Below, piece by piece: positions 9,331 through 54,587 of a stretch of 64,000 nucleotides of DNA. The notes under the pieces are model-generated. The model saw only the letters and a program-made list of their open reading frames with translations, searched no databases and was not told the DNA's origin. Source of the DNA: Coraliomargarita sp. GTDB taxonomy: Bacteria; Verrucomicrobiota; Verrucomicrobiia; Opitutales; Coraliomargaritaceae. The stretch covers positions 2,592,001-2,656,000 of the forward strand of contig OZ244160.1 in NCBI GenBank assembly GCA_965216325.1, given 5' to 3'. Each line of letters opens with the position of its first letter. Within the stretch, counting starts at the first letter, position 1. The position numbers and the translations under genes were made by a program.

Positions 9331-10479
9331 CTTAAGGGCAGCTTTCATCTTCTCTAAGCCTTCAATTAGACGGCTTTGCGGGCAGCCAAAGTTTAGACGT
9401 ACGTGCTGGTGTCCGTCGAAGGGAATGCCATCGGAGAGGCCTACGCCGTGGTCTTCAAAGAATTTCACCGGGTTGTCCAACTCCAGCTTGCTGACGTCGA
9501 ACCAGGCTAGGTAGGTGGATTCCATCGGACGGAAGGTGATATCCGGCATTTGTTCTTTGATGAACTTGAAGAGTAACTCGTAGTTGCTTTTCAAATATGC
9601 GAGGAGCGCCTGACGCCATGGCTCACCGTGGTTGTAAGCAGCCTCGCAACCAGCATAGCCAAAGCAGTTTACCTCGGTGATGATGCCGCGGATGGTCTTC
9701 TGGAATTGTAGACGCAACTTGCTGTCTTCAATTACCGAGAATGCACAGGCTAGGCCAGGTAGGTTGTAAGTCTTGCTTGGAGCCATGAGCGTGACAGTGC
9801 GCTTCGCGATCTGCTCACTCAGTGTCGCGGTGACGATGTGCTTTGCGTCATCATCGAACACGAGGTCGCAGTGGATCTCGTCTGAGATCAGGATTAGATC
9901 GTGGCGCTCGCAGAAGTCAGCCATCTTGGTCAACTCTTCGCGCGTGTAGACACGGCCGACCGGATTGTGGGGGCTGCATAGCACGAAGACCTTGGTGTTT
10001 GGCTTTACCAACGCTTCCATCGCCTCGAAGTCGAGTGTCCAGACATCGTCTTCGTTCAGGCAAAGCGGTGCCTTGATCAGTTCGCGATTCGCGTAGTCGG
10101 GTGCGCTGAGGAAGGGCGGATAGACCGGGGTTGCGGTCATGACCGAATCACCGGGCTCAGTAAAGGCGTGGCAGCAGAGGTTGATGGCCGGCACGAGGCC
10201 AGGGAGGAAGTTGAGCCAGCTAGCCTTGGCTTCGTAGTTGTGTTGACGCTGCAGGTAATTGAGCACTGCTTCGACGGGTGCGTCGAAGGGAACGGTGTAG
10301 CCAAATACGCCGTGGTCGAGACGGGCTTGCAGCGCGTTCAGGATCTCAGGCGCAGAGGTGAAATCCATATCAGCGACCCAGAGCGGTAGGATGTCTTTGC
10401 CCTTATACTTGTCCCACTTGAGAGAGCCATAGCCCGTGCGGTCCGGGCAGCTGTTGAAATTGTAAACGGTGTCGGTCAT
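9322..10479 (-). CDS. MalY/PatB-family PLP-dependent C-S lyase (cystathionine beta-lyase type)
   Basis: PLWVADMDF, HGVFGY, LCSPHNPVGRV, ISDEIHCD, APSKTYNLPGL and RLNFGCP motifs. Confidence 0.92.
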   Translation of the reverse strand: MTDTVYNFNSCPDRTGYGSLKWDKYKGKDILPLWVADMDFTSAPEILNALQARLDHGVFGYTVPFDAPVEAVLNYLQRQHNYEAKASWLNFLPGLVPAINLCCHAFTEPGDSVMTATPVYPPFLSAPDYANRELIKAPLCLNEDDVWTLDFEAMEALVKPNTKVFVLCSPHNPVGRVYTREELTKMADFCERHDLILISDEIHCDLVFDDDAKHIVTATLSEQIAKRTVTLMAPSKTYNLPGLACAFSVIEDSKLRLQFQKTIRGIITEVNCFGYAGCEAAYNHGEPWRQALLAYLKSNYELLFKFIKEQMPDITFRPMESTYLAWFDVSKLELDNPVKFFEDHGVGLSDGIPFDGHQHVRLNFGCPQSRLIEGLEKMKAALKER

Positions 10480-10602
10480 ATGGGCGCAAAGATCAACAAG
10501 CAGTCTCGCGCCTGCAAATCATTTTGAGCTTTTGTTATTCACATCATTCGTAGATGACATGGGCGTTTATCAGGAGCACGGAAGTGCTATGATGATAAAC
10601 TT

Positions 10603-11691
10603 ATGCAAAACCCCACATCATCTACACGGACAACTAAGAACGCACTGGGCACAGTAATCAAGCTTGGCATTGACGTGCATGCGAGCACCTACGTGGTGGT
10701 CATGAAGATCGATAGCAGCGCCCCTTCACGCGCGAAGCGCATGAAGCCTGATATCTTCCTTCGATGGATTAAGCAGCTGAGCACTCAGTGCGAGCAGTTG
10801 CAAAGTTGCTACGAGGCCGGTCCTTTTGGTTACAGCCTGCACCGCAAGCTCAAGGCGATGGGCGTGAACAACCACGTAATCCGCCCGATCAACTGGGACA
10901 CTCATGGTAAGAAGGTAAAGACCGACGCGCGTGATGCGTTGCAAATGGTCTTGAGTCTGGACGGCTATCTGCGGGGCAATGACCGCAGCTTCAGTGTCGT
11001 GCGTGTGCCCAGCGAGCAAGAAGAGCGTCACCGCAGCCTAACCCGGCAGCGTGAAAGCTTCGTCAAAGAACGTGGCCGTGCGGCCAAGCGTGGTAAGAGT
11101 CTGGGACTGTATTACGATCAACCCTTACCCAGCGGCTGGTGGAAGCCGCGCAAATGGATGCAGCTACTCGAACAGCTCGACGATTTTTTGATCAGCCTGC
11201 TGGAGCCACTGCGGTTAAACTGCCTGCACTTTAGCGAGCTAATCAGCAACATCGAAGAACGTATCGAAGCGCTCGAGCCGGAACGGGTGCTGCCTAAAGG
11301 CATGGGGGTGGTCCTCTATGAACAGATCGAACGTGAGGTCTGCAACTGGAAGCGATTCAACAACCGCAAGGCGGTCAGTTCCTTTACCGGACTGTGCCCA
11401 AGCGAAGACACTAGTGCAAATCGGCGTTTCCAGGGCTCGATCAACAAACACGGCAGTCCCCGCCTGCGGCATATGCTACAAGAGTGCGCCTGGTTATTGA
11501 TCCGGTGGAATCCCGGCTACAGTGGGGTGCGTAAATGGCAGGCCAAGCTCAGCGACGAGACCACCAGTAAGGCGACCCGCAAGAAAATTGCCGTGGCCAT
11601 CGCCCGGCAGTTCGCCGTGGACTGGTGGCGCATACGCACTGGCCAATGCAGTCTCGAAGACTTCGGACTGATAAGCAGACAAAACCCATAA
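10603..11691 (+). CDS. IS110-family DEDD recombinase/transposase
   Basis: LGIDVH, YEAG, KTDARDA (DEDD); GLCPSEDTS (Ser loop); INKHGSPRLR; IAVAIARQ motifs. Confidence 0.95.
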   Translation: MQNPTSSTRTTKNALGTVIKLGIDVHASTYVVVMKIDSSAPSRAKRMKPDIFLRWIKQLSTQCEQLQSCYEAGPFGYSLHRKLKAMGVNNHVIRPINWDTHGKKVKTDARDALQMVLSLDGYLRGNDRSFSVVRVPSEQEERHRSLTRQRESFVKERGRAAKRGKSLGLYYDQPLPSGWWKPRKWMQLLEQLDDFLISLLEPLRLNCLHFSELISNIEERIEALEPERVLPKGMGVVLYEQIEREVCNWKRFNNRKAVSSFTGLCPSEDTSANRRFQGSINKHGSPRLRHMLQECAWLLIRWNPGYSGVRKWQAKLSDETTSKATRKKIAVAIARQFAVDWWRIRTGQCSLEDFGLISRQNP

Positions 11692-11758
11692 GTCCGAACC
11701 AACGCTAAAGGCCTTCACCCTCTGATTTTAACGTTCTTTTGCAGTTTTCCTTTGTGCG

Positions 11759-11903
11759 GAGTGAGTCTGACCAAGCCCCTGTTGCCAACACAACGATTTT
11801 GTAGAATAGGCCACTTCGCCACCAAGCTTTTGAATGACCCAATGGATAGGTCATAGTGTGCTCTTCTGAGAAACACTCAGAAACACGGATAGCAGGTTAT
11901 CCC
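11759..11903 (+). ncRNA. Predicted bridge/seek RNA core (target-binding and donor-binding loops); true RNA ends unknown
   Basis: Guides AAGCCCCT (11773-11780) and GTAG (11801-11804) match the target; GTCAT (11850-11854) and ATAGCAG (11889-11895) match the donor junction; each pair flanks an internal stem and is closed by an outer stem. Confidence 0.75.
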
Positions 11904-12029
11904 GGATCATCGAAACTCCGAGGCCATGCGCGGTGGACGCTCAAAGACGATTGCAATCAAAACAAACCACTTATCTTATGTAAAAACACTCACACGCTTC
12001 TACACTCTTGACAGAAACGAACATAGCAG

Positions 12030-12051
12030 GGGCTTTGCTTGCGAAGCCCGC
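12030..12051 (+). repeat. 3' part of the REP palindrome interrupted by the IS110 element
   Basis: GGGCTTTGCTTGCGAAGCCCGC; intact copy at 62380..62405 on the minus strand. Confidence 0.88.
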
Positions 12052-12103
12052 AGTTTGTTCGATAGATCTAGCAAGCGCGTTCGGCTTGCTTTGTGCGGGC
12101 GTA

Positions 12104-12131
12104 GTGCGCACCGAGACGGTGCTGCGCTACC
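12104..12131 (-). repeat. GTAG-type REP palindrome, family 2
   Basis: Reverse complement GGTAGCGCAGCACCGTCTCGGTGCGCAC is identical to 22289..22316. Confidence 0.8.
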
Positions 12132-12187
12132 AACTTTTCCGCGAATAGGCTTCTAACTTCCAACTTCTCCCTTCTAACTTCTTAAGC

Positions 12188-12865
12188 ATGAAAGCACGCA
12201 ACAAACTGGCCGAATCCACCACTCCTGACGGTGCGCCGATGGCGCTCTATGAGCATGACGGTCATTATTCGATCAGTTTTCAGGGGCAGGAACTGATGCA
12301 CTCGGATGCTTCGGCCTCTGAACTTCGTTTGGGGGAATTGGGCATTGAGCAATTGGATCCTGAGGGTGCCCCTCGCGTGTTGATTGGCGGACTCGGCTTA
12401 GGTTTTACGCTCCAGTCGACGCTGGCAGGACTTGGATCGGAGGCTCGGGTCGATGTCGCGGAGCTGGTGCCGAAGGTTGTCGAATGGAACCGTGAGTATT
12501 TACAGAGCTTGAATGGGGCACTTGTCGATGACCCGCGCGTGAATATGATTGTGGGCGACGCCGTTGCGTTGATTCGCAAAGCCCCCCCAAATACCTACGA
12601 CGCCTTGATTCTCGACGTAGACAATGGTCCGACGGGAATGGTAAAGCCCAGCAATAGCTCGCTCTATTCCGCCAAGGGACTCTATGCTGTCAAGACGGCG
12701 CTCAAGCCTGGTGGCCGCGTAGTCTTTTGGTCGGCAGGCGAAGACCAATATTTCAAAGCACGCCTCGGCCGAGTCGGCTTTCGCGTCGGTGTGGTTCCGG
12801 CCAAGGTCCACGAGCGTGCGAAACGTGCTGCTTACCGAATCTATATTGGGGATAAAAAGGGCTGA
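12188..12865 (+). CDS. Spermidine-synthase-like SAM-dependent methyltransferase
   Basis: VLIGGLGLGFT SAM motif; DALILDVDNGP. Confidence 0.8.
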   Translation: MKARNKLAESTTPDGAPMALYEHDGHYSISFQGQELMHSDASASELRLGELGIEQLDPEGAPRVLIGGLGLGFTLQSTLAGLGSEARVDVAELVPKVVEWNREYLQSLNGALVDDPRVNMIVGDAVALIRKAPPNTYDALILDVDNGPTGMVKPSNSSLYSAKGLYAVKTALKPGGRVVFWSAGEDQYFKARLGRVGFRVGVVPAKVHERAKRAAYRIYIGDKKG

Positions 12866-46042: not shown

Positions 46043-46600
46043 TTGCGTCATGAAAGCCCAGTCAGATGGGAAAGAAAACTGACAACGTTCATTGAAAATC
46101 TGAATTAATACCCAGCGGGTGAGAAGCCCGTCTGATAGAGTTTGGCAAACAGTCAGAACCGAGTCTTGCATAGCTTTAGGCAACGAGGGCATGAAGCGTA
46201 GACAGGGTGATGCTGAGGCTGTGTTATTGAGCTCCGAAATTAGGTTTATCGGTTTGCGTCCTCCTACTTGGCCTAGCGGGGGAAGGAACCCCGCAGGGCG
46301 GAATCATCAGCCCTCTGTTGGCGAACATATACCTCCACGAAGTGTTAGATAAATGGTTCGTTGAACAGGTTCAACCGCTGATGAAAAGTGAATGCTTCCT
46401 TGTGCGCTATGCCGACGACTTCGTTATGGGTTTCCATGACGAGCGAGACGCACGGCGTGTGATCGATGTGCTCGCCTTACGTTTTGCCAAATATGGGTTG
46501 GTTATACACCCTGAGAAGACTCGTCTTCTTAGATTCACCAAACCATGGCAGAATCAGGGTGGAGGGCGAGGCGAAAGCTTCGACTTCCTCGGGTTCACTC
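46043..46600 (+). pseudogene. Decayed group II intron: 5' ribozyme segment fused to an internal RT fragment
   Basis: TTGCGTCATGAAAGCC start; ACCGAGTCTTGC..GGCAAC..GAAGCGTAGACAGGG..TTGAGCTCCGAAA domain I motifs; then [35 protein letters not shown]. Confidence 0.85.
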
Positions 46601-46638
46601 TACACAGAGAAAACTTTTACACTGCTAAGGATCGGGGC
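46596..46638 (+). repeat. 43-bp copy of the putative IS1380 right end
   Basis: CACTCTACACAGAGAAAACTTTTACACTGCTAAGGATCGGGGC is identical to 54545..54587. Confidence 0.85.
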
Positions 46639-52049: not shown

Positions 52050-53133
52050 GGGGTCATGTCATTATCTTTGTGGTTAGCTGCTTGTAAGCCTTGCTGTGTT
52101 GGCCCTTGGTTTTTCTGAATTCAGATACGTAGCGGCTAACCGCGTCTGAGGTGCCCATGTTGAGTTGTTTAGTAATCCAGACATTCGTGGCACTGCTCTT
52201 TTGTTTCAGTAAACAAGCGAGCATGACTTTCCATTGCGCCGATTTGAGATCTGTTGTGATGGATTGAGTGTCTTTGCCTAGGGCGGCTAGCCCGGCATCC
52301 AGAAGCATTTCCCACCTCAACTGATTGGCCTCGCGTAGGCGTTGGCCATCATAGCTTGGGATCCTTTCCGCTGCAGCTTTGGAACCGTTATTGTCTTTGT
52401 CGTCTTCGACCTCTTCGAGCAGTGCCTTCTTGAACTCCTTGGTTCCGATGGCCCAGCCGCGACACATTGTTTCAAATGCCATCTCTTTCTGTGCGGCACT
52501 ATCCGCAGATAGCCATTTGAGGTAAGCTTCGTAGTGTGTTCTGCCTATCGGCGTATCTGCCAATGCCCCTGCAGCGTGTAATGCGCCTGAGCAATCGAGA
52601 TAAGTTGGGCGCTTGCGCTTATTGAACAGATACCAGTAGCTCGACCATCGGTAATGCTTTAGCTCTTCAACGCTAACCATTCCGGCTCTCACGGGGTTAA
52701 GGTGCACGTAGTGGAGCAGAGCTCCCAAATAGCCATCCTGCTCTACGATGAGACTTTTGTAGCGTCCTTGGAATAGTTTACCGTGAACCTTTCGGAAACG
52801 GTGGTAGCGGTTGGCGAAAGTCGATTGCAACCACTTCATGCCATAGATCAGGTTACCTCTCGGTGTACGCACGACTAAATGAAAATGATTGGTCATGACA
52901 CAGAACCCTTCCAGCACCCAACCGCATTTTTCGCAGGCTTCGAATAGGCAATTCTCAAAGGATAAGTGGGCGCCTTCGTTGATGAATAAGTCCTGCCGAT
53001 AGTTTCCTCGGTTGATAATGTGGTAAACACCGTTCTCCTTCTCAATGCGTAGACTCCGAGGCATGCTGTTATATCAATAATAGTTACTTTTTGTTGCAAT
53101 CACAAAGATAATGACATGACCCCTTTGGGGACT
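52050..53133 (-). mobile_element. Y1/HUH (RAYT-like) transposase unit bounded by perfect 23-bp inverted repeats
   Basis: GGGGTCATGTCATTATCTTTGTG (52050-52072) and CACAAAGATAATGACATGACCCC (53101-53123); terminal CCCCTTTGGGG hairpin. Confidence 0.75.
52054..53064 (-). CDS. REP-associated-type Y1 tyrosine transposase with a C-terminal helical (HTH-like) extension
   Basis: YHIINRG, MTNHFHL (HUH), LFQGRYKS, YVHLNPVRA and YRWSSY motifs. Confidence 0.9.
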   Translation of the reverse strand: MPRSLRIEKENGVYHIINRGNYRQDLFINEGAHLSFENCLFEACEKCGWVLEGFCVMTNHFHLVVRTPRGNLIYGMKWLQSTFANRYHRFRKVHGKLFQGRYKSLIVEQDGYLGALLHYVHLNPVRAGMVSVEELKHYRWSSYWYLFNKRKRPTYLDCSGALHAAGALADTPIGRTHYEAYLKWLSADSAAQKEMAFETMCRGWAIGTKEFKKALLEEVEDDKDNNGSKAAAERIPSYDGQRLREANQLRWEMLLDAGLAALGKDTQSITTDLKSAQWKVMLACLLKQKSSATNVWITKQLNMGTSDAVSRYVSEFRKTKGQHSKAYKQLTTKIMT

Positions 53134-53152: not shown

Positions 53153-53733
53153 TCTTTCTGTGCGGCACTATCCGCAGATAGCCATTTGAGGTAAGCTTCG
53201 TAGTGTGTTCTGCCTATCGGCGTATCTGCCAGTGCCCCTGCAGCGTGTAATGCGCCTGAGCAATCGAGATAAGTTGGGCGCTTGCGCTTATTGAACAGAT
53301 ACCAGTAGCTCGACCATCGGTAATGCTTTAGCTCTTCAACGCTAACCATTCCGGCTCTCACGGGGTTAAGGTGCACGTAGTGGAGCAGAGCTCCCAAATA
53401 GCCATCCTGCTCTACGATGAGACTTTTGTAGCGTCCTTGGAATAGTTTACCGTGAACCTTTCGGAAACGGTGGTAGCGGTTGGCGAAAGTCGATTGCAAC
53501 CACTTCATGCCATAGATCAGGTTACCTCTCGGTGTACGCACGACTAAATGAAAATGATTGGTCATGACACAGAACCCTTCCAGCACCCAACCGCATTTTT
53601 CGCAGGCTTCGAATAGGCAATTCTCAAAGGATAAGTGGGCGCCTTCGTTGATGAATAAGTCCTGCCGATAGTTTCCTCGGTTGATAATGTGGTAAACACC
53701 GTTCTCCTTCTCAATGCGTAGACTCCGAGGCAT
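53153..53733 (-). pseudogene. 3'-truncated duplicate of the Y1 transposase, part of a 650-bp direct repeat (52484-53133 = 53153-53802)
   Basis: Same protein sequence up to AAQKE, after which the frame reads into the 17-bp repeats; one synonymous difference noticed (52563 A vs 53232 G). Confidence 0.85.
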
Positions 53734-54544: not shown

Positions 54545-54587
54545 CACTCTACACAGAGAAAACTTTTACACTGCTAAGGATCGGGGC
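54545..54587 (+). repeat. Putative IS1380 right end (43 bp), repeated at 46596
   Basis: Lies about 140 bp downstream of the transposase fragment; identity with the other copy stops after GGATCGGGGC. Confidence 0.7.

Follow-up and report, generated by a model that had tools for sequence, protein, structure and literature searches.

A predicted guide RNA downstream of an IS1111-type recombinase gene in Coraliomargarita sp. carries matches to the target site of its element

We describe here a multi-copy insertion sequence (IS) of the IS110 family in a 64,000-nucleotide stretch of Coraliomargarita sp. DNA (assembly GCA_965216325.1, contig OZ244160.1, positions 2,592,001 to 2,656,000 of the forward strand), which we refer to as the window and whose first letter is position 1. 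The element occupies 10554-12029, and all of its features given below lie on the forward strand. We think it likely, with a probability that we put at about 0.85, that a guide RNA of about 185 nt, whose sequence lies just downstream of the gene (about 11756-11940), directs the DEDD/Ser recombinase of this element (10603-11691); this would be a bridge or seek RNA of the IS1111 type. The evidence that carries this view was observed directly, and consists of sequence matches, insertion sites, copy number, and covariation both within the stems and between the guides and their flanks. It is a known kind of RNA-guided system, found here in a divergent and little-studied branch that is mostly verrucomicrobial and from soil metagenomes.

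The element is intact, has an AG core and is of the IS1111 type within the IS110 family. It measures 1,476 bp counting one AG, and nine full copies are present across its own genome (one contig of 3.06 Mb). Over 10555-12029 eight copies are identical and the ninth has a single change, C11884A; with nine copies, the element is active or recently active. In the DNA sequencing runs X2-X4 its read depth is about 7-10 times that of its flanks. The left target flank GT and the left copy of the core lie at 10550-10553 (core at 10552-10553), and this tetranucleotide reads GTAG in eight of the nine copies and GAAG in one. The right target flank is GGGCTT in nine of nine, and forms the 5' arm of a hairpin that resembles a repeated extragenic palindrome (REP), GGGCTTTGCTTGCGAAGCCC (12030-12049), which was also flagged as terminator-like. 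The target of all copies is (G)TAG|GGGCTT within this REP-like hairpin, and uninterrupted sites in the genome read GTAG|GGGCTT. Empty GTAGGGGCTT 10-mers occur 34 times in the genome against 6.5 expected from composition, and the hairpin and its variants are repeated across the genome. Given that AG is present at both junctions, a short core repeated at both ends as in the site-specific insertion of IS110 elements, we take it to be the core. The element also lacks terminal inverted repeats, as expected of this family.

Both ends could be read directly. The left end (49 nt, 10554-10602) starts with the terminal ATGAC and continues into the arm of a sub-terminal inverted repeat (10559-10570). The right end reads ATAGC followed by the right copy of the core at 12028-12029 (together 12023-12029), which the comparison of copies agrees with. 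By eye, 9 of 12 positions agree between ATGGGCGTTTAT (10559-10570) and the reverse complement of 12013-12024. Each arm lies 5 nt from an end, and the repeat is weak in this copy; its family consensus is ACATGGGG (ATGGGG) / CCCCAT. A first-pass annotation made from the letters of the window had described the target, the ends and the AG core correctly, and needs only a small correction of coordinates, to an element start at 10554, GTAG at 10550-10553 and the right AG at 12028-12029. In sequencing run X1, one 2,501-nt contig (window 10552-12500), present at single-copy depth, fuses the left flank of the GAAG copy (C1:2070245, minus strand) with the right flank belonging to the window copy. Another strain may carry an inversion between two copies in opposite orientation, or the assembly may have taken a path through the repeat.

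The case for an RNA guide comes largely from relatives of the element. A scan of a genome collection gave 20 loci, all Verrucomicrobiota by record title, including Thalassobacterium sedimentorum (72% identity) and several Candidatus Synoicihabitans copies (55-65%). A metagenome scan with a protein alignment confirmed 510 relatives among 601 matched stretches, and the best 80 of the 510 (42-73% identity) were used. The seed RNA alignment held 16 of 21 sequences, namely the window and 15 of the 20 loci; L030, L036 and L037 were left out as near-duplicates and L038 and L039 as unalignable. A covariance model, R1, was built on this alignment with the structure taken from the window, and was searched in 100 sources (the window and 99 loci, with L036 outside the set). 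It gave 86 matches, one per source (the window and 85 of the 99 loci), all of them on the same strand as the transposase gene; wherever the position was mapped, the match lies downstream of that gene. The sole match in the window spans 11752-11927 and scores 130.4 bits. The resulting 86-row alignment (83 rows distinct) was fitted to the R1 structure and so leans towards that structure.

Two segments within one loop of this RNA match the DNA on either side of the core. The right target guide, AAGCCCCU (11773-11780; AAGCCCCT in the DNA), is the exact reverse complement of 12028-12035, that is, of AG plus the right flank GGGCTT. The left target guide, GUAG (11801-11804), has the same sense as the left flank GT plus core, so that its partner would be the bottom strand. 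The RNA thus places the top-strand complement first, in agreement with the order that the first-pass annotation had given for RNAs downstream of IS1111-type genes and with that of published seekRNAs (PMC11187229).

Covariation of these guides with flanking DNA in homologues, which the first-pass annotation had named as a check on its prediction, was found on both sides. The right junction of each locus was set independently of the target guides, as the first exact copy of the locus's own 7-mer (its counterpart of ATAGCAG, discussed below) at least 60 nt downstream of the RNA. This gave a right junction with at least eight flank bases in 68 of 86 loci, most other loci being cut off by contig ends. 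Over 39 distinct 5' guides, the reverse complement of the guide matched the first eight right-flank bases at a mean of 6.79 positions against 4.02 when permuted, with none of 2,000 permutations as high. Without the common GGGTC target class the values were 6.82 and 3.58 (n = 28, again 0/2000). Many loci carry the guide TGACCCCT beside a right flank of GGGTCA after AG; other guides are accompanied by other flanks, as in L031 (CGACACCGCT, flank CGGTGTCG), L078 (CACGCGGCCT, flank GCCGCGTG), L061 (AGGGACGGCT, flank CCGTCCCT) and L086 (GTATGCACT, flank TGCATAC). In two loci, L079 and L096, the right junction reads ATAGCAG|CAG and is followed by the expected target (with one G missing in L096), which looks like a 3-nt duplication or slippage at the core.

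On the left side, 62 of 86 loci had a junction, taken as the point where AG stands before the conserved motif of the left end. The two bases of the 3' guide beside the core (-1 and -2) match the left flank in 25 and 22 of 27 distinct guides, and positions -3 to -6 match in only 5-10 of the 27, about the level of chance. Over six positions the mean is 2.93 matches against 1.74 permuted, with 0/2000 as high. From these comparisons the left target guide is usually 2 nt plus core, in line with the GUAG of the first-pass annotation, and longer ones of 5 nt plus core occur in L048 (CGCCAAG) and L070 (CTTCCAG). A second, different member of the family is present as a single copy in the same genome, outside the window (L130, C1:2769468-2771005), and its guides also match its own flanks: GCTCCCCTCCT against AG|GAGGGGAG on the right, and CAAG against the left flank TCAAG. 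The target of this second element looks palindromic too (CCCCTCCT...AGGAGGGG).

All of the strings and pairs named in the first-pass annotation were checked letter by letter and stand where it had placed them: AAGCCCCT at 11773-11780, GTTG/CAAC at 11781-11784/11791-11794, GTAG at 11801-11804, GGATAG at 11844-11849, GTCAT at 11850-11854, GTGT/ACAC, TTCTGAG/CTCAGAA, ATAGCAG at 11889-11895 and TTATCC at 11897-11902. How they fold is another matter. The non-coding stretch 3' of the reading frame is 338 nt long (11692-12029), and the one upstream only 49 nt. When 11692-12027 was folded as free RNA, the first loop of the annotation was reproduced exactly and the second was not.

Across the 86-row alignment, 78.2% of cells in all model helices are paired against 66.0% after shuffling (0/500 shuffles as high) and 31-47% with slid partners. 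The outer stem of the target loop (11756-11769 with 11807-11819) consists of helix 1, 87.4% paired, and helix 2, 96.4% paired, which together have compensatory changes in 11 of 13 pairs. Its inner hairpin (helix 3, 11780-11795) is 97.6% paired, with compensatory changes in three of five pairs. The first loop and both of its target guides, as originally drawn, are therefore upheld by stems that covary and guides that track their flanks.

In the second half of the RNA, three helices meet in a junction whose two joiners are long and single-stranded, in contrast to a simple internal loop. This half is closed by a long-range helix, P4 (11819-11828 with 11927-11936), whose 5' strand directly follows the target-loop stem and whose 3' strand follows a third hairpin, P3. 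In a plain MAFFT alignment of 78 distinct sequences with no model fitted, 90.8% of P4 cells are paired and 10 of 10 pairs have compensatory changes (0/500 shuffles as high, slid controls 46.7-59.4%). The longest helix per sequence in this region averages 8.70 bp against 5.81 shuffled (76 distinct sequences). In the window P4 reads CCACCAAGC / GCGCGGUGG, with seven of nine standard pairs. Since P4 ends at 11936, beyond the R1 match, the RNA would reach about 11940; both of its ends were set from the helices. Between the two donor-side segments lies hairpin P2b (11856-11886), whose basal GUGU/ACAC is 84.5% paired with no compensatory changes and whose distal part is variable; RNAalifold recovers it with 5+5 compensatory sequences. 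Hairpin P3 (11903-11920) is 75.4% paired, with compensatory changes in four of four pairs.

An alternative hairpin, ATGACC/GGTCAT (11833-11838 with 11849-11854), would sequester GTCAT and has 6 bp in the window. We rejected it as a family feature, given that the longest helix there averages 3.76 bp in the family against 3.84 shuffled. In the GAAG-flanked copy, whose RNA lies at C1:2070338-2070513, the sole sequence change (C11884A) breaks a G-C pair at the base of P2b and lowers the R1 score from 130.4 to 123.1 bits. A changed left guide in this copy is ruled out, because this is its only change.

On the donor side, the segment AUAGCAG, followed by G (11889-11896), has the same sense as the right end plus core and is identical to 12023-12029. 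The 10-nt GGATAGCAGG that holds it is the most invariant stretch of the RNA, and the internal 7-mer (ATAGCAG or ATAGGAG) recurs at the right end in 69 loci. The sole variant, ATAGGAG, is found in L031, L093, L095 and L085, and the right end reads ATAGGAG in all four. This change seems to have arisen at least twice, as L085 groups by other features with L118, which bears ATAGCAG; we judge this from the guide strings and not from a tree. In the donor segment the core is mostly followed by G, and the flank likewise mostly starts with G (49 distinct cases). Four segments have another base there, namely C in L031, L093 and L061 and T in L032, and each agrees with the first base of its flank; four flanks with a first base other than G have no matching base in the segment (L079, L096, L086 and L120). 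With its equality to the right end, mirrored by the variant, the putative left donor guide of the first-pass annotation is supported.

The same cannot be said of the right donor guide that it had proposed, GUCAU (11850-11854), which is complementary to the left end ATGAC and lacks the core complement. This is not a family feature: complementarity of 5-7 nt is confined to the sub-clade of the window (5 nt in the window, L021 and L041; 7 nt in the Synoicihabitans copies; 6 nt in L025), and the core complement is never part of the match. Given that the right donor pairing of IS621 is described as discontinuous (PMC11208160), the left end could still be read by the RNA without a contiguous match. 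We also considered 10611-10624 as a right donor guide borne by the leader, as 12 of its 14 positions agree with the reverse complement of GTAG+ATGA..GGG. This was rejected because the part that matches the flank is lost in relatives with GAAG or AAAG targets, and the segment fits better as part of a leader hairpin.

It is interesting to consider another role for the two same-sense guides, one in the target loop and the other in the donor module, here seen as a three-way junction that a long-range helix closes. Instead of the substrates, these guides may spell the junctions of the integrated element. The left target guide would continue into the left end by one or more bases (AG|A...), and the left donor guide extends by one base into the right target flank (C, C and T in three lineages with flanks that begin with C, C and T). 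The two same-sense guides would then have a handshake-like or excision-reading role, placed on the bottom-strand guides rather than on the right guides as in IS621, and the left end would be read without a contiguous RNA guide. We offer this as a speculation that we think is unlikely to be correct.

The recombinase gene (10603-11691) encodes 362 amino acids, and was assigned from Pfam, NCBIfam and invariant residues. The product matches the C-terminal Tnp domain PF02371 (Transposase_20) at 52.9 bits and, at the borderline, the N-terminal RuvC-like DEDD domain PF01548 (DEDD_Tnp_IS110) at 29.2 bits against a cut-off of 29. Residues D24, E71, D108, D111 and S271 are invariant in an alignment of six sequences, the window protein and five relatives at 47-72% identity, from which L024 and L036 were excluded for their stop codons. 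The conserved serine lies in GLCPSEDTSA, with SA in place of the usual SG, and is followed by D, N or G in relatives. A search of the PDB with the single sequence gave no match. A profile made from the six sequences finds the ISCro4 transposase (PDB 9t56) as its best solved relative, in an alignment that covers D24, E71, D108 and D111 (GIDV / E / KTDA.DA) and the GL.P motif. The best tblastn identity to any plasmid record in PLSDB is 31.8%. With this value, and with Rfam giving no match, the description of the system as uncharacterised in the first-pass annotation is plausible.

In two Candidatus Synoicihabitans palmerolidicus loci, L024 and L036, the transposase frames carry one and two stop codons. 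Their RNA regions still score 176.9 bits (L024) and align fully (L036). One-base changes are present in the right ends of L023 and L024.

The signals that could drive expression lie at the ends of the element. TTGACA (12008-12013), 16 nt from the right end, is a candidate -35 box for a promoter that would form at a circle junction. Of 60 distinct right-end tails, 58 contain TTGAC, and in 42 of the 60 it is exactly 16 nt from the end. Joined ends would give TTGACA-N17-T(G/A)ACAT, in which the left end supplies T(G/A)ACAT, 17 nt further downstream. Within the integrated copy, a search for sigma-70-like promoters gave none. We found no circle junction in the contigs from four DNA runs, which as contigs give no information on starts or ends.

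The left end and the first seven codons (10550-10625) can form a long nested hairpin of -30.6 kcal/mol (z = -5.61, 0/200 shuffles as stable). The start codon lies in an internal loop, and GTAGATGA pairs with TCATCTAC inside the open reading frame. The motif CCCAC(A/G)TCATC, which encodes a conserved PTSS, is kept in five of six aligned relatives, and L028 has CCCACATCAC instead. This leader hairpin may silence read-through transcripts until a junction promoter that starts inside the left end removes its 5' arm.

Taken as an IS1111-type element, it would excise as a circle whose joined ends create a promoter, and transposase mRNA and guide RNA would be co-transcribed. The internal loop of the first domain would pair with both strands of (G)TAG|GGGCTT at the foot of the REP-like hairpin. 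The second domain, closed by 11819-11828/11927-11936 and made of two hairpins joined by single-stranded segments, would read at least the right end and core through AUAGCAG (11889-11895). The left end could be read by GUCAU (11850-11854), by discontinuous pairing, or by the protein via the sub-terminal repeats, and strand exchange would take place at AG. Production of the RNA (probably by read-through from the circle-junction promoter), its binding by the recombinase and the chemistry of strand exchange are expected here from homology with ISEc11 and IS621.

A number of observations weigh against an RNA guide, or against parts of the one proposed. A search of sequencing runs listed no RNA run with the element, and transcription is thus presumed. 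Rfam gave no matches at E up to 1 in 10300-12400. The predicted fold is not unusually stable compared with shuffled sequences (z = +0.86 for the whole non-coding region and z = -1.37 for 11752-11927), for which reason homologues were needed to settle the structure. In the 3' half, the fold of the first-pass annotation, at -18.1 kcal/mol, is 6.5 kcal/mol costlier than the minimum free energy fold of -24.6 kcal/mol. Its GGATAG/TTATCC stem, which was supposed to close the second loop, is only 50.6% paired, with compensatory changes in three of six pairs; we rejected it as a conserved helix, and P4 closes the domain instead.

The guides, too, have their exceptions. The 5' guides of L035 and L079 match only two of eight flank positions (2 of 39 distinct guides), and the 3' guide of L053 matches none of six. 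In four loci with 330 nt of sequence downstream, the 7-mer lacks an exact counterpart at the end: L023, L024 and L025 are one base off, and L040 has none. Complementarity at the position of GUCAU falls to 2-3 nt in the large clade with ATAACAT left ends and in the L028 clade. The identity of ATAGCAG with the right end is in the same sense, and so cannot separate RNA-DNA pairing from a copy made at the level of DNA. With regard to the protein, NCBIfam NF033542 ('IS110 family RNA-guided transposase') scores 137.8 bits, 2.2 below its cut-off of 140, and we therefore regard the recombinase as a divergent member of the family. The profile matches to ISCro4 (E = 2.8e-4, 23.7 bits) and IS621 (E = 0.055) are weak.

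Part of this evidence would fit an RNA that serves as a seekRNA only. In such a scenario the first domain would guide target choice, as well as excision from matching flanks, and the second would be a scaffold, a processing signal or part of a precursor. The protein would recognize the ends via the sub-terminal inverted repeats, which are present, and ATAGCAG would be kept for some other reason, for instance as a site for the protein that also occurs at the right end, or as a DNA-level copy; the four ATAGGAG cases would suit a shared protein site or gene conversion equally well. The lack of a contiguous right donor guide across the family is also in line with this. For ISEc11, it was reported that an 82-nt RNA with the target matches alone moved a mini-IS better than the 154-nt form did, and the authors regard the role of the long RNA as unsettled (PMC11187229). 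This counts against our preferred explanation, and given that a short target-only RNA sufficed for movement there, the 'bispecific' function that the first-pass annotation implied for the second domain is not borne out. However, the structure of the second domain is conserved, with compensatory changes in P4, P2b and P3, and it contains the most invariant stretch of the RNA. The segment follows exactly the same-sense-plus-core logic of the left target guide, itself proven by covariation. The base after the core tracks the first flank base in four of four cases other than G, which a pure protein site does not predict, and donor matches were reported in the loops of IS1111 elements (Durrant 2024, PMC11208160). 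We consider it quite unlikely that the RNA acts as a seekRNA only.

The matches could also be due to chance, in which case the region would be ordinary non-coding DNA or an element controlling transcription or translation of the transposase gene. Matches of 4 and 5 nt are expected by chance in 338 nt, the thermodynamic z-scores are unremarkable, and Rfam gave no match. Against this, the guides covary with their flanks (39 and 27 distinct guides) and the stems covary too, with none of the randomized controls reaching the observed values, and the RNA is present in 86 of 100 sources. By these comparisons the idea is already refuted for the first domain, and overall we think it extremely unlikely. 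We thus return to a downstream RNA that guides the recombinase as the explanation that we favor.

The RNA-guided reading gains from what is known of other elements. SeekRNAs were experimentally shown for four IS1111 elements (PMC11187229), in which they lie downstream of the gene with the match complementary to the top strand first, the reverse of IS110 types. Co-transcription of transposase mRNA and RNA was proposed for IS1111 types in the same report, and for 93.0% of IS1111 elements the right end was predicted to contain a bridge RNA (PMC11208160). The element in the window resembles ISEc11, ISPa11, ISKpn4 and ISPst6 as described by Siddiquee et al. 2024 (PMC11187229), in its long downstream non-coding region, the order of its guides, the overlap of the two matches at the insertion point and its sub-terminal inverted repeats (7-17 bp in that group). 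Related elements with changed guides occupy changed targets in both cases. The long form of the RNA, 145-172 nt in those elements, would be about 185 nt here.

Unlike them, as they are presented in that report, the recombinase has 362 amino acids (about 330-350 there) and A rather than the usual G after the conserved serine. The target is a REP-like hairpin with an AG core, and the left guide comprises just 2 nt and the core. The RNA described here also has a conserved second domain that matches the right end; the available text of that report leaves this part of the RNA unassigned.

The likeness to the IS621 bridge RNA (Durrant et al. 2024, PMC11208160; Hiraizumi et al. 2024, PMC11208158) lies in a DEDD and serine recombinase, in one RNA with a target and a donor module, and in left guides that have the same sense as the top strand and right guides complementary to it. 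In contrast to IS621 as described there, the RNA is at the right end rather than the left, the order of guides within the loop is reversed and the core is AG rather than CT. In place of a simple internal loop, the donor module forms a junction that a long-range helix closes, with no evident right donor guide that includes the core complement, and the relation between the proteins is by profile only.

ISPpu9 and ISPpu10 (PMC12288879; bioRxiv 10.64898/2026.03.19.712850) are similar in the insertion of many copies into repeated extragenic palindromes, with a stem-loop beside the base-paired stretch. Unlike in those elements, as far as these sources describe them, the right guide here would pair with one arm of the hairpin itself. 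ISPpu10 also figures among three IS110-group and three IS1111-group examples in PMC11208160.

Two other repeats in the window are unrelated to the element. One is a 300-nt direct repeat, 100% identical, at 52484-52783 and 53153-53452 (spaced 669 nt), and the other is an exact 43-nt repeat at 46596-46638 and 54545-54587, with the copies 7,949 nt apart.

RNA-guided IS110/IS1111 recombinases are under development as tools for writing genomes, and the IS1111 side is far less understood than IS621. The known principle is unchanged by the family described here; what it adds is the helix-closed second domain, the very short left guide and the size of the reprogramming series. This natural series comprises 39 different right guides and 27 different left ones, all accompanied by flanks of their own, and it shows how little pairing this branch needs on the left side, namely 2 nt plus core. 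It also provides comparative evidence that the long IS1111-type RNA, whose role the available text of PMC11187229 leaves open, carries a match to the right end within a conserved second domain closed by a helix.

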